A stretch of DNA of 64,000 nucleotides from Eledone cirrhosa (taxonomy: Eukaryota), in assembly GCA_964016885.1 (NCBI GenBank), contig CAXHJY010000455.1, positions 4,203 to 68,202 of the forward strand, given 5' to 3'. Made by a program: the position numbers and the translations under genes. Positions 1 to 14,225 of this stretch are shown here, one piece after another. Position 1 is the first letter of the stretch, and every line of letters begins with the position of its first letter. The notes beneath the pieces are model-generated. The model searched no databases. It was not told the origin of the DNA and was given only the letters and a program-made list of their open reading frames with translations.

Positions 1-148
1 GTCAATGGCAACATTGAGGACCGAGTAAGTTAGATCGCAGATATGTATATATAAAAGACAGCGAGAAGCGAAAACCAACCAAACAGTGAGTGTGTTCTGT
101 TATTAATTCTGGCAAAATTACGCAAATATGACCCTCCCCAAATATAAC
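1..148 (+). mobile_element. 3' terminus (pseudo-LTR end) of a Penelope-like element
   Basis: Close match to 14081-14225 (gtcaatgg..acattgaggaccga...atgaccctccccaa.tataac), the end of the PLE at 12.8-14.2 kb; runs directly into a TA array. Confidence 0.8.
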
Positions 149-2372
149 TATATATATATGTATATATATATATATATATATATATATATATGTATATATA
201 TATATATATGTATATATATATATATATATATATATATATATATATATATATATATATATATATATATATATATATATATATATATATTATCTATATATGT
301 ATATATATATATATATATATATGTATATATGTGTATATATATATATATATATATATATATATATATATATATATATATATATGTATATATGTATATATAT
401 ATATATATATATATATATATATGTATATATGTATATATATATATATATATATGTATATATGTATATATATATATATATATATATATGTATATATGTATAT
501 ATATATATATATATATACATATATATATATATATATATATATATATACCATATATATATATATATATATATGTATATATGTATATATATATATATATATA
601 TATATATATATATATACATATATATATATATATATATATATATATATATACATATATATATATATATATATATATACATATATATATATATATATATATA
701 TACATATATATATATATATATATTATATATATATATATATATATATATACATATATATATATATATATATATATATATATGTATATATATGTATATATAC
801 ATATATATATATATATAAATATATATATGTATATATATGTATATATACATATATATATATATATAAATATATATATGTATATATATGTATATATATATGT
901 ATATATATATATATATATGTGTATATATATATATATATATATATATATATATATATATATATGTGTATATATATATATATATATATATATATATATATAT
1001 ATATATGTGTATATATATATATATATATATATATATATATATATATGTACATATATATATATATGTATATATATATATATATATATATATATATATATAT
1101 ATATATGTATGTATATATATATATATGTATATATATATATGTATATATATATATATGTATATATATATATATATATATATATATATATATATATATATAT
1201 ATATGTATATATATATATATATATGTATATATATATATGTATATATATATATATATATGTATATATATATGTATATATATATACATATGTATATATATAT
1301 ATATATGTATATATATATATATATGTATATGTAAATATATATATATATATATATATATGTATATATATATATATATATATATGTATATATATATGTATAT
1401 ATATATATATGTATATATATATATGTATATATATATATATGTATATATATATATATGTATATATATATATATATATATATATATATATGTATATATATAT
1501 GTATATGTATATATATATATATATGTATATATATGTATATATATATATATATATGTATATATATATATATATATATATATATGTATATATATATATATAT
1601 ATATGTATATATATATATGTATATATATGTATATGTATATATATATATATGTATATATATATATATATATACATATATATATATATACATATATATATAT
1701 ATACATATATATATATACATATATATATATATACATATATATATACATATATATATATATATATACATATATATATATATATATATATATTTACATATAC
1801 ATATATATATATATATACATATATATATATATATACATATGTATATATATATACATATATATATACATATATATATATATATATACATATATATATATAC
1901 ATATATATATATATATATATACATATATATATATATATATATATATATATATATATATATATATATATACATATATATATATATACATATATATATATAC
2001 ATATATATATATATACATACATATATATATATATATATATATATATATATATATATATACATATATATATATATGTATATATATATATATGTATATATAT
2101 ATATATATACATGTATATATATATATATATATATGTATATATATATATGTATATATATATATATATATATATATATATATGTATATATATATATGTATAT
2201 ATATATATATATATGTATATATATATATGTATATATATATATATGTATATATATATATATATGTATATATATATATATATATATGTATATATATATATAT
2301 ATGTATATTTATATATATATATATATATATGTATATATATATATATATATGTATATATATATATATATATAT
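149..2372. repeat. Interrupted (TA)n array, mainly TATG variants
   Basis: Seen directly; source of the spurious IYIY ORFs. Confidence 0.97.
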
Positions 2373-2438
2373 AGTTAAAAGAATAGAGGTGTAACACACA
2401 AGTTATTATATATTGGTAAACGGAATAGAAAATGCTGA

Positions 2439-2652
2439 CAAATTGTTCACAGTTGAAAAATGGTGTAATTAGGAATAAAAGAGTATTAGTGATTGTATGG
2501 GTTAGTATTCAGTTGTGGTTTTAAGTTTTTAAGTTTTTACCGGTTGCTCATTTCTAAATGCTTTTCAAAGATAATTTTGAGATAGAGTGTCCGTGCAATC
2601 ACTAATACTCTTTTATTCCTAATTAAACCATTTTTCAAATGTGAACAATTTG
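2439..2652. repeat. Inverted repeat, ~59-bp arms (2439-2497 / 2594-2652)
   Basis: caaattgttcacagttgaaaaatggtgtaattaggaataaaagagtattagtgattg versus its reverse complement with ~3 mismatches. Confidence 0.9.
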
Positions 2653-2659
2653 AACAACT

Positions 2660-11161: not shown

Positions 11162-11743
11162 TGTTTGTTTGGTTTTGTCTTGTGGTTTTGTTTTGTGGCT
11201 GTGTGACTTGCTGCTTACTCGGGGAGAGAAGTAAAAACACGTATATATATATATATATATATATATATATATATATATATATATATATATATGTATATAT
11301 ATATACATATGTATATATATATATGTATATATATATATATATATATGTATATATATATGTATATGTATATATATATATATATATATATATGTTATAACAT
11401 TTCTCCACACACAGACTATATCAATCATATAAAGAATTTGCCACCAGATCTACCAACCTAACACTCTTGTTTACCTACCTAAGTGCCTCTACCACACATA
11501 TCTCTCTGCCACACAATATAAACAAGACGCACATGCGTGCCACACATATAACATTTGCACTATATAACCGCTTATCTTCATGTTGTATTTTAACCTGTAT
11601 TTTTGATTTTTGATTGTACCTCTTAATATGAATTCTGTAATGAATGTTGACCCACAATGTTTGAATATGTATCAATGTTTGAATATGTATCGGTATGTCT
11701 CTCGGCTAAAAAGGAGGTCATATAACTGTCCATGCATTAATTA

Positions 11744-11797
11744 ATTGCTCCGAAGAATCCACAACCTCGGTTTGGAGGAAACAGCTGTAAGCACAAT
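11744..11797 (+). ncRNA. Variant or degenerate type I hammerhead motif
   Basis: attgct-CCGAAGA-a tcca caacc tc ggtt tgga g-GAAA-cagct-GTA-agcacaat. Palindromic loop III; U4C change in core. Confidence 0.6.
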
Positions 11798-11830
11798 CAG
11801 GTTTTGAACAGTTCTTTGATTCTTATATTT

Positions 11831-12757
11831 CATATATATATATATATATATATATATATATATGTATATATATATATATATATATATATATATATGTATA
11901 TATATATATATGTATATATATATATATGTATATATATATATATGTATATATATATATATGTATATACATATATATATGTATACATATATATATGTATACA
12001 TATATATATGTATACATATATATATATGTATATATATATATATATATATATATGTATATATATATATATATATATATATGTATATATATATATGTATATA
12101 TATATATATGTATATATATATATATATATATATATGTATATATATATATGTATATATATATATATGTATATATATATATGTATATATATATATATATATA
12201 TATGTATATGTATATATATATATATATGTATATATATATGTATATATATATATATGTATATATATATATGTATATATATATATGTATATATATACATATA
12301 TGTATATATATATATATATGTATATATATATATATGTATATATATATATATACGTATATATATATATATGTATATATATATATGTATATATATATATATG
12401 TATATATATATATGTATATATATATATATGTATATATATATATATGTATATATGTATGTATATATATATATATATGTATACATGTATGTATATATATATA
12501 TATATATATATATATGTATATATATATATATATATATATATATATATATATATATATATATATGTATATATATATATATATATGTATATATACATGTATA
12601 TAAATATATATGTATATATATATATATATATATATATATATATGTATATATATATATATATATGTATATATATATATATGTGTATATAAATATATACATA
12701 TATAAATATATGTATATATATATGTATATATATATATGTATATATATGTATATATAA
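11831..12757. repeat. Interrupted (TA)n array (TATG)
   Basis: Seen directly. Confidence 0.95.
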
Positions 12758-14225
12758 ATTCTCCACTCAGACTATGCTAAACCCATGGCCTTCAAATACC
12801 TGATACTCAAAAACTCAGCAATGTCTAGTAGTGGTAAGTTTAATATTCTGATCGCAGATTTGGTACGAATAATGAAGAATGTGTCCCGCATGTGCGACCC
12901 AACAGAAATGGAAAGACACACACAACACTTCATCAACCGCATGCAGTTCTCTGGCTACAACCAAAGAGACAGAGTCAGAGTATACGAAGGAGCCACGGAG
13001 AAGTATAAGACCCTCATAGAACTGGAAATGAAAGGAATTTGCCCATTATACAGGAGCAAATCATGGAATAGCTTAGATAGGGCTAGACATAAGATAGGGA
13101 AAGCCACCTCTTGGTACGACAACCGAAGATACCAGAGTGTCATGTTTGTGGACGCTACCTCTGGGGGAAAATTAACTAACCAGTGTAGAAAGGCCCTGAG
13201 AAAGACCCACTTAAAGATTAAGGTGGTACAAAAGCCAGGAACCACCATAAAATCCCTGATCAGCAACACCTACCCTTTTAAGAAAACCCACTGTACTACT
13301 AGGAAATGTATCATATGTAACGTAAAACCCCGGATAAACTGTAAAACTAGAAACGTAGTCTATAGCATAAGATGTACAGAGGGTACTTGCAGAAACATGA
13401 CAACAACATACATAGGAGAGACAGCTCGTAGCATAGGTGAAAGGATAGACCGACACTGGGGGGAAGTAAAAGGACGAAAAACGGTCCAGTACTATACGAA
13501 CATGCCATACAACAACACGACGGTAACATAGACAACATAGAAATTAGAATAATATCTAAACATAGAAATGACCCAGCAGATAGGCAAATCAGTGAGGCCA
13601 GTGAAATCGAACTTAGAAGGCCAAGACTAAACAGAAAGAATGAATGGAATAACAACAGCACCCAAACAAACAACACTGATCTAAGAGACGTATAAATAAA
13701 TAAATAAATAAATAAATAAATAGATAAATAAATAAATACATACACAAGCACAATAACAACAAAGACATATAAACACAGATTAGTAAATATAGAATACATT
13801 AACCGATACACAGTCACCCAATCACGAACACACATCAAACAAAACACTATACACACACTCAAACGCATGCGCAAAGAAGACAAAATAAAATAAACAAACA
13901 AACAAACAAATAAATAAATATATAGACAGACTAAATAAAAATGGCGTAGACATACAATGTAACGGGAGGAAACAATAGCACCACTGACGATGTTGCAGAT
14001 GTGCAACGAAAGAACTTTGATAAACTATATATATGTGTTTGTGTCTATATTGTATCTGTATTATTTTTGACCGTCGGTCAGTCAATGGTAACATTGAGGA
14101 CCGAATAAATTAGATTACCGATATAAAAGACACAGAAGCGATAAGCGAAAACCAACGAAACAGTGAGTGTGTTCTGTTATTAATTCTGGCAATATTACAC
14201 AAATATGACCCTCCCCAAGTATAAC
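12758..14225 (+). mobile_element. 5'-truncated Penelope-like retroelement, second lineage (RT thumb, Cys-rich linker, GIY-YIG)
   Basis: MQFSGY, SVMFVDAT, KIKVVQKPG, CxxxxCxxC..C, NVVYSIRC..YIGETARS..R; frameshifted C-terminus (..RQISEA..LNRKNEW); hammerhead in 3' region. Confidence 0.85.
13981..14020 (+). ncRNA. Minimal hammerhead motif of PLE pseudo-LTR
   Basis: cca-CTGACGA-t-gttgca gatg tgcaac-GAAA-gaactt-tga. 6-bp stem II with an extra U after A9; weak stems I and III. Confidence 0.6.

Follow-up and report, generated by a model that had tools for sequence, protein, structure and literature searches.

Penelope-like elements (PLEs) that carry a hammerhead ribozyme at the 3' end favour (TA)n as a target. 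In the sections of Craig et al. 2021 (PMC8557442) on the Hydra clade this holds for almost every Hydra family, Hydra-1_Obim of Octopus included, and File S1 gives the preference for 26 of 27 Hydra rows, Octopus among them. Those sections do not mention kilobase arrays or co-orientation. A microsatellite bias mediated by the linker has been hypothesised for Neptune, one of the canonical PLEs. A PLE of a different clade has two internal start sites for reverse transcription, which define an optional tail of 30-40 bp (PMC11167929).

Terminons and the telomeric Athena/Coprina PLEs are described in the relevant parts of PMC6431247 as head-to-tail arrangements of 5'-truncated units with 3' hammerheads and simple-repeat spacers. 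They have no canonical endonuclease, and reverse-complement repeats join them to the G-rich overhangs of telomeres.

Short non-coding units with type I hammerheads are also known in animals, as non-LTR retrozymes and as solo minimal hammerheads, in the parts of three reports that treat them (PMC7229834; PMC4209133; bioRxiv 10.64898/2026.07.22.740005). Metazoan minimal hammerheads have poor activity and work as dimers (PMC4209133).

Structure of the chain

The window is a stretch of 64,000 nucleotides from Eledone cirrhosa. Near its start a chain of five 5'-truncated PLE-type tail ends and one intact, opposed LINE lies in a long TA repeat. For each unit the identity, the strand and the boundaries are direct observations, the anatomy of the chain is real, and it is mostly of known type. 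The features of the chain are:

1-148, plus strand: U1, PLE 3' end belonging to the U4 family, cut by the window edge and running directly into (TA)n
149-2373: array A1, (TA)n with G interruptions, 81 G and 36 C on the plus strand
2374-2654, minus strand: repeat fragment that contains a 57-bp inverted duplication and has no PLE protein homology
2655-5430, plus strand: U2, 5'-truncated Hydra-clade PLE, protein part at 2663-3366 followed by a 3' region of about 2 kb
5341-5386, plus strand: type I hammerhead motif of U2, with a perfect core, 5-bp stem II, 3-bp stem I and a G-G mismatch in stem III
5431-6289: array A2, 46 G and 5 C on the plus strand
6290-11241, minus strand: APE-RT LINE, apparently full-length, two open ORFs, boundaries read from the sequence
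11242-11390: array A3, between the LINE and U3
11391-11831, plus strand: U3, non-coding island with a hammerhead at 11743-11796
11832-12756: array A4, 53 G and 9 C on the plus strand
12757-14285, plus strand: U4, 5'-truncated canonical PLE with RT thumb, linker and GIY-YIG with CCHH
14286-14299: short TA tract after U4
14299-14509, plus strand: U5, repeated unit of 210 bp, Hydra-type hammerhead at 14370-14422, short TA tract behind it at 14509-14522

Three further features lie outside the chain:

27424-29228, plus strand: second Hydra-type PLE, ending in (TA)31
43740-43975, minus strand: hammerhead island in array system B (covariance model E 0.019)
47340-50060, minus strand: third Hydra-type PLE, between arrays 43976-47339 and 50061-51895

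The TA arrays that an earlier note placed between the units were confirmed at 149-2373, 5431-6289, 11242-11390 and 11832-12756. Its list of plus-strand units was incomplete, as it had overlooked the fifth hammerhead unit, U5. In that list U2 follows directly on the first array, but the distinct fragment at 2374-2654 separates them. Over 60 bp this fragment is 75% like 41982-42040, in the opposite orientation. The possibility that 2374-2595 is an inverted 5' piece of a PLE was rejected, this stretch has no PLE protein match and matches another dispersed repeat weakly.

Protein homology to PLEs is found at 2663-3366 and 12758-13678, both on the plus strand. The coding part of U2 is broken by one frameshift and one stop and this copy has no RT core. 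N-terminal RWK and DKT motifs are further marks of the Hydra clade. It is colinear with the C-terminus of P0004 and P0005, and its C-terminal GIY-YIG domain lies at 2878-3228 (Pfam E 1.2e-4). After an NPPY motif the linker has the form CxCX5C (CNCRVSANC), the GIY-YIG lacks CCHH, with a single Cys between VYA and YIG, and CxxC (CNLC) and CxH (CPH) motifs are present. U2 has these features in common with Hydra-clade elements such as Hydra-1_Obim, as well as the 3' hammerhead, the (TA)n target, with the array starting at 5431, and a cephalopod host. It differs from the clade in being a truncated, broken copy in which about 2 kb separates the end of the ORF from the hammerhead, whose stem III is mismatched in this copy. 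The hammerhead is unlike that listed for Hydra-1_Obim, U2 therefore belongs to another family.

U4 belongs to a high-copy family and its frame is broken near 13476. It matches P0001, a protein of Octopus vulgaris, at 59%, and has the CX2-5CxxC linker and CCHH motif of the canonical Nematis and Neptune PLEs. The linker is CX4CxxC (CTTRKCIIC), with a spacing that by eye, no tree having been built, is closer to the Nematis than to the Neptune rows of Fig. S2. The GIY-YIG with CCHH (IRCTEGTC...YIGETAR...DRH) aligns to P0002. The earlier note ended U4 at 14225, which is about 60 nt short. Read depth in sequencing run X18 is 6806 at 14157-14212, 4775 at 14213-14268 and 813 at 14269-14324, this drop places the end at about 14280-14285.

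U1 is 87% identical to 14081-14225 of U4, so the two are one family. Of the several unrelated PLE families claimed for the chain, at least two clades remain. U1 terminates about 60 nt earlier than U4, and use of one or other of two start sites may explain why U1 has the short end and U4 the long one; the optional tail in PMC11167929 is shorter than this difference.

No PLE protein homology was found in U3 (11391-11831), a hammerhead-only island that probably represents the 3' end of a PLE. Further copies of U5 occur in the sequenced runs. Both U3 (441 bp) and U5 (210 bp) resemble the short non-coding type I units of animals, but retrozymes are tandem repeats of one unit of 150-450 bp and no second copy of either was found in the window. 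As single copies they fit the solo motifs ascribed to truncated PLEs in PMC4209133.

The minus-strand LINE has ORFs at 6365-9361 (998 aa, RT and APE) and 9373-10551. Its 3' end meets A2, and its direction is opposite to that of the PLE units. This end and three other retroelement ends, which we take to be RTE-like, lie within 1-16 nt of TA tracts, as read off the sequence.

Proximity of PLEs and hammerheads to TA was also observed directly in relatives. At related loci (TA)5+ occurs within 250 nt of 16 of the 33 evaluable hammerheads, compared with 3 of 150 control windows, in agreement with the earlier note and with what the Hydra sections of PMC8557442 had already published. A search for relatives among viral contigs gave none in 64 candidate stretches. 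PLE ends are stacked within the TA repeat most likely because PLEs are known to target such repeats. We consider it likely that truncated PLE ends of at least two clades and the opposed LINE are independent insertions into a pre-existing, strand-biased (TA)n microsatellite. The GIY-YIG endonuclease would cut within (TA)n and reverse transcription would start at the 3' terminus of the element itself, an early stop would then leave 3' ends with their hammerhead. The chain is most likely an ordinary pile-up of PLEs in a TA repeat; its one unexplained feature is that element direction matches the strand bias of the arrays.

Hammerhead motifs

A hammerhead motif is visible within the window in four of the five chain units. 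A three-stem descriptor gave five matches in the window against 0.65 expected (40 shuffles). Two motifs, at 5348 and 11750, pass both this descriptor and a covariance model built from the hammerheads of relatives (E 0.005 and 0.1), and the best match to the model in the window is U5 (E 3e-4). The Rfam search of the window gave no match at the gathering score. Below it the only hammerhead match was 5342-5386 (Hammerhead_1, 27.8 of 34 bits, E 0.0025), the other sub-threshold matches were miRNA models on TA arrays and were discarded. In folding energy against shuffles only 5325-5400 stands out (z -2.5; one of 12 stretches below -2).

A motif at 42374 is tentative, with a descriptor score of 9 and a covariance model E of 0.84. 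Motifs at 15107, 20289 and 62037 from a loose scan did not survive.

Judged by CUGANGA, GAAA, UH and three stems, each of the four chain motifs has a core or stem defect. U2, U3 and U5 match the relatives' model with one defect each. In U3 a C replaces U at core position 4, and stem III is palindromic. In this copy of U5 core position 3 is a T, whereas C predominates in the reads of X18 (14377 T>C, 493 of 577 and 1317 of 1403). In U4 the core at 13984-14011 is perfect and its stem II has 6 bp, but the motif failed the three-stem descriptor and the Hydra-type model. No hammerhead of U1 lies inside the window. The hammerheads claimed for the chain units are predicted motifs in U2-U5, each with a lesion. 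They are probably decayed relics.

In the model of the earlier note, hammerheads would cleave a read-through transcript into pieces containing (UA)n; these would be copied back, and element mobility would enlarge the satellite. The units are co-oriented, and in six of six motifs measured a TA tract begins 42-267 nt downstream of the predicted cleavage site, a proximity shared by 20% of non-tract positions. Tandem PLE precursors have been proposed to cleave themselves (PMC4209133). The same report describes minimal hammerheads as weak and acting as dimers, but one hammerhead per family is visible in the chain, which leaves no same-family dimer partner. Cross-family stem III pairings (-5.9 to +0.9 kcal/mol) are weaker than the self-dimers of U3 (-11.1) and U5 (-12.8). 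Every unit is 5'-truncated, and the sole intact element is opposed. In U2 an AATAAA at 5384-5389 precedes its array A2. In the one system tested, a PLE began reverse transcription in vitro at an internal site, and hammerhead cleavage was not required (PMC11167929). This internal start, the hammerhead lesions and the missing dimer partner leave the read-through proposal without support; array signatures also follow the locus. We regard it as very improbable.

Origin of the TA arrays

Array signatures common to both flanks of insertions were observed directly. The interruption pattern at the end of A2 (C15 G5 G18 C13 G5 G18 C13 G5 G16) resumes in A3 beyond the LINE (C13 G5 G14). The arrays of system B, including 43976-47339 and 50061-51895, share one compound unit and have G on the minus strand. 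This unit, AATAC, was counted 23, 65 and 38 times in the three B arrays, which border two different insertions on either side; the A and C arrays do not have it as a common interruption. The arrays appear to derive from the target and to have grown by slippage, because a rare compound unit flanks two insertions on both sides and a local pattern continues past the LINE. The signature tracks the locus and not the element, contrary to the suggestion that the elements build the arrays. Shared flank signatures are also compatible with array growth after insertion. Interruptions are spaced more evenly than random in seven of nine arrays (CV 0.24-0.71 against 0.89-0.93; A3 and B2 not significant), which fits amplified units. 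Growth was probably by DNA slippage and unequal exchange.

The arrays might also be products of reverse transcriptase, either by telomerase-like reiterative copying or by copying of A-to-I edited (UA)n hairpin RNA. Copying of edited (UA)n would place G on the sense strand, where it is found, and all 81 G of A1 are in TGT context. In models (UA)n RNA would fold back almost fully (97-98% paired), and cephalopods have heavy A-to-I editing. However, TGT and ACA result from any transition in (TA)n, the B unit requires two linked changes, one of them a transversion, and this one unit lies 5' and 3' of unrelated elements. Independent edits are expected to be random or clustered, whereas the observed spacing is under-dispersed. 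ADAR editing and scattered TpA mutation were rejected on this spacing as sources of the G bias. We find an origin of the arrays by reverse transcription very improbable.

Orientation of the elements

Stacking on the same strand is weak evidence in the chain (4/4, p=0.125; 5/5, p=0.06). At related loci two neighbours across a TA tract are co-oriented and two are opposed, so the orientation-specific niche proposed earlier was not established. Across the window seven of eight adjacent PLE/hammerhead pairs are on the same strand (p=0.035, counting the weak motif at 42.4 kb), and strands are more clustered than independent insertion would predict. Under independent insertion the shared direction of U1-U5 would be chance or a mild local bias.

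The direction of insertion into pre-existing arrays might be tied to array strand bias. The endonuclease or the priming step may prefer one strand of interrupted (TA)n, or transcription or replication may set both; G interruptions may give the palindromic TA target a direction, or the bias may be imposed by the elements themselves. In six of six units beside biased arrays, G lies on the sense strand of the PLE (two-sided p about 0.03), and element strand and array bias both change from plus in system A to minus in system B. This comparison is post hoc and covers two array systems only. The LINE does not conform, the bias is reversed within A1 near 1670-2070, and no PLE was identified next to array C (60644-61859), which is also biased. 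The relatives, with short tracts in other organisms, are divided both in the orientation of neighbours across TA and in bias, L078 having C and L055 having G on the sense strand. No literature on PLE orientation and microsatellite polarity was found among open-access papers. Under such coupling, which we consider rather unlikely, chains within a single array would normally be co-oriented.

Significance

The chain resembles Terminons in its head-to-tail 5'-truncated units, 3' hammerheads and simple-repeat spacers. It differs from these endonuclease-deficient telomeric PLEs in the GIY-YIG of U2 and U4, in the self-complementary (TA)n that forms both spacer and flanks, and in its internal site.

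What is new here is that cephalopod-type Hydra and Nematis/Neptune-like families join a known pattern, with TA arrays as landing sites for several retroelement classes. If direction were coupled to array polarity, unrelated PLE clades would stack head-to-tail in internal microsatellites as Terminons do at telomeres. Were this true genome-wide, it would give a cheap handle on the microsatellite targeting and tandem formation of PLEs, which PMC8557442 names as open points, and would link internal PLE integration to telomere-style addition.

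Layout of the chain

The window has a G+C content of 29%, and its 46 TA tracts cover 19% of the sequence. Repeat analysis confirmed the positions that the earlier note gave for the four TA arrays (A1-A4) lying between Penelope-like element (PLE) ends and hammerhead units U1-U5.

Features of the chain
1-148, plus: U1, PLE 3' end
149-2373: A1, TA array
2374-2654: non-PLE fragment between A1 and U2
2655-5430, plus: U2, PLE
5431-6289: A2, TA array
6290-11241, minus: LINE with two open ORFs
11242-11390: A3, TA array
11391-11831, plus: U3, hammerhead-only island
11832-12756: A4, TA array
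12757 to about 14285, plus: U4, PLE
14299-14509, plus: U5, fifth unit, after U4

The closest named homologs of the window's proteins are from cephalopods; U4 matches Octopus vulgaris protein P0001 at 59% and LINE ORF2 matches Argonauta protein P0031 at 57%. The LINE has ORF1 (392 aa) and ORF2 (998 aa) without stops, and is apparently intact and likely young. Its ORF1 contains a weak Myb/SANT match, polyglutamine and, by eye, two CCCH-like motifs; in the 5' region 240 bp are duplicated and a 51-bp repeat occurs three times. A short interspersed family occurs in several copies in both orientations (18763-18928, 23348-23761, 30924-30984, 33816-33994, 37886-38077).

Identity of the PLE units

U2 contains a CxCX5C linker, a GIY-YIG without CCHH, and CxxC and CxH motifs, which define the Hydra clade in Craig et al. 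2021 (PMC8557442). All testable Hydra features are present, and U2 is by its sequence a Hydra-clade PLE. Craig et al. give a (TA)n target for 26 of 27 Hydra rows, one of the rows being Octopus bimaculoides, and places hammerheads across the whole clade. U4 has the canonical-PLE combination of a CX2-5CxxC linker and a CCHH endonuclease, the linker spacing appearing Nematis-like when judged by eye against the published rows (PMC8557442).

U1 is 87% identical to 14081-14225 in U4, the chain therefore comprising two families defined at the protein level plus two islands with a hammerhead only. In RAD run X18, 621,328 of 12.5 million reads were placed on 12757-14420, and by this count, which is inflated by RAD cut sites, the U4 family is very abundant. 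Depth is high up to 14268 and drops in the next bin, so most U4-family copies extend about 55-60 nt beyond the point where U1 stops. This difference may be set against the optional tail of 30-40 bp described for a lizard PLE, which is fixed by two internal RT start sites (PMC11167929).

A third Hydra-type PLE (27424-29228, plus) has a degenerate hammerhead-like core near 29153 and ends in (TA)31. At their 5' junctions, U3 (11399-11420) and U4 (12758-12776) open with similar short words, possibly by chance, and blastn reported no match between them.

Hammerhead motifs

A three-stem descriptor matched the window five times (43909 on minus; 42374, 14377, 11750 and 5348 on plus), compared with 0.65 matches per shuffle. 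A covariance model was derived from related metagenome loci, using 37 of their 50 distinct hammerhead motifs; these members were picked by the same descriptor, so that the model's pairing statistics lean toward structure. The model ranked 14370, 5341, 43845 and 11743 highest in the window (E 3e-4 to 0.1), scored the motif at 42367 weakly and did not detect the U4 motif at 13984, which is from another clade.

Unpaired bases flanking stem II are usual in relatives too (T/T in 23 of 47) and were therefore not counted as damage. The real defects are these: stem III of U2 has a G-G mismatch at a position that is C in 37/37 aligned relatives, core position 4 of U3 is C, stem I of U4 has at most 2 bp, and core position 3 of U5 is T, against C in about 90% of reads. 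Metazoan minimal hammerheads are described as cleaving poorly and acting as dimers (PMC4209133); no same-family partner is visible in the chain for any unit.

Two islands lie between TA tracts elsewhere in the window, one with a tentative plus-strand hammerhead at 42374 (42159-42601) and one with CUGAUGA present and the GAAA half absent (42677-42989). A 284-bp repeat pair (14957-15240 / 17537-17814, 82%) begins directly after a TG microsatellite; its hammerhead-like core was rejected by stricter tests.

Association with TA tracts

For all six predicted cleavage sites measured in the window, a TA tract follows downstream at a distance of 42-267 nt; 20% of free positions are as close to one. Among the 79 related loci examined, taken from the 80 top-ranked stretches of 248 that were confirmed, 47 have a downstream sense hammerhead, 33 of them evaluable, and (TA)5+ occurs within 250 nt of 16 of these 33 compared with 3 of 150 control windows. 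The proposed adjacency of PLE/hammerhead units to TA is thus real and general, but within the window it is not specific to PLEs: TA tracts also terminate the LINE and three fragments that we take to be RTE-like, ends that were set from the sequence, which makes this observation partly circular.

The RTE-like LINE fragment at 16361-17132 meets TA tracts on both sides and repeats its end sequence in inverted form; a related piece is found at 51896-52091.

Orientation and polarity

The niche had also been proposed to be orientation-specific. Strand agreement in the chain is 4/4 (p=0.125) or 5/5 (p=0.0625), over the whole window seven units, one of them tentative, lie on plus and two on minus (p=0.18), and adjacent units share a strand in 7/8 pairs (p=0.035), all in a window selected for looking odd. 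The LINE inside the chain lies on the strand opposite to the PLE units. Four related loci, chosen by eye, have a different PLE/hammerhead unit across a TA tract; L010 and L041 are co-oriented, L031 and L060 opposed, and L027 and L057 were left out as inverted copies of the same element. Given the chain p-values, the opposed LINE and this even split, an obligate orientation niche is not demonstrated. Tail-to-tail PLE/hammerhead units around short (TA)n occur in other organisms at L031:2504-3300 and L060:2460-2988.

The arrays themselves have a strand bias, with G on plus in A1-A4 and 60644-61859 and on minus in 42990-51895. The sense strand is the G-bearing strand in 6/6 PLE/hammerhead units touching a biased array (U1, U2, U3, U4 and the units at 43.8 kb and 47-50 kb; two-sided p=0.03, post hoc), and unit strand and bias reverse together between the chain and 42990-51895. 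This concordance would fit an insertion direction linked to array bias. Such a link is nevertheless unlikely: the concordance is drawn from two array systems, the LINE is discordant, A1 contains a stretch of opposite bias, one biased array has no identified PLE, and tails in relatives are split, one concordant and one discordant (L055, L078). A search of open-access papers found no published report relating PLE direction to array polarity.

Origin of the arrays

Interruptions are spaced more evenly than random in 7/9 arrays and local higher-order repeats are seen, as expected if a unit of roughly 14-24 nt slips. In the arrays of 42990-51895, the compound unit (AATAC) is present on either side of two unrelated insertions; it does not belong to the common units of A1-A4 or of 60644-61859. 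The interruption pattern of A2 picks up again in A3, beyond the LINE. The array signature goes with the locus rather than with the element, and this speaks for insertion into a pre-existing array. The arrays may have grown after insertion.

In the second array system (42990-51895), a Hydra PLE and a hammerhead island both lie on minus, and an RTE-like end is also present. Around 60644-61859 there is a 92-bp perfect inverted duplication (61219-61310 / 61863-61954); both inner flanks have a common unusual array start, so part of this array was duplicated in inverted form.

Comparison with known systems

The likeness of the chain to the Terminon arrays, as these are described in PMC6431247, is in layout only. 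U3 and U5 are closer to solo PLE ends than to tandem retrozymes as presented in PMC7229834 and bioRxiv 10.64898/2026.07.22.740005. Many Penelope-like families are reported from Octopus vulgaris (PMC13282606). Judged from its sequence, the chain appears to work like known (TA)n-targeted PLE integration, its units being further members of known elements.
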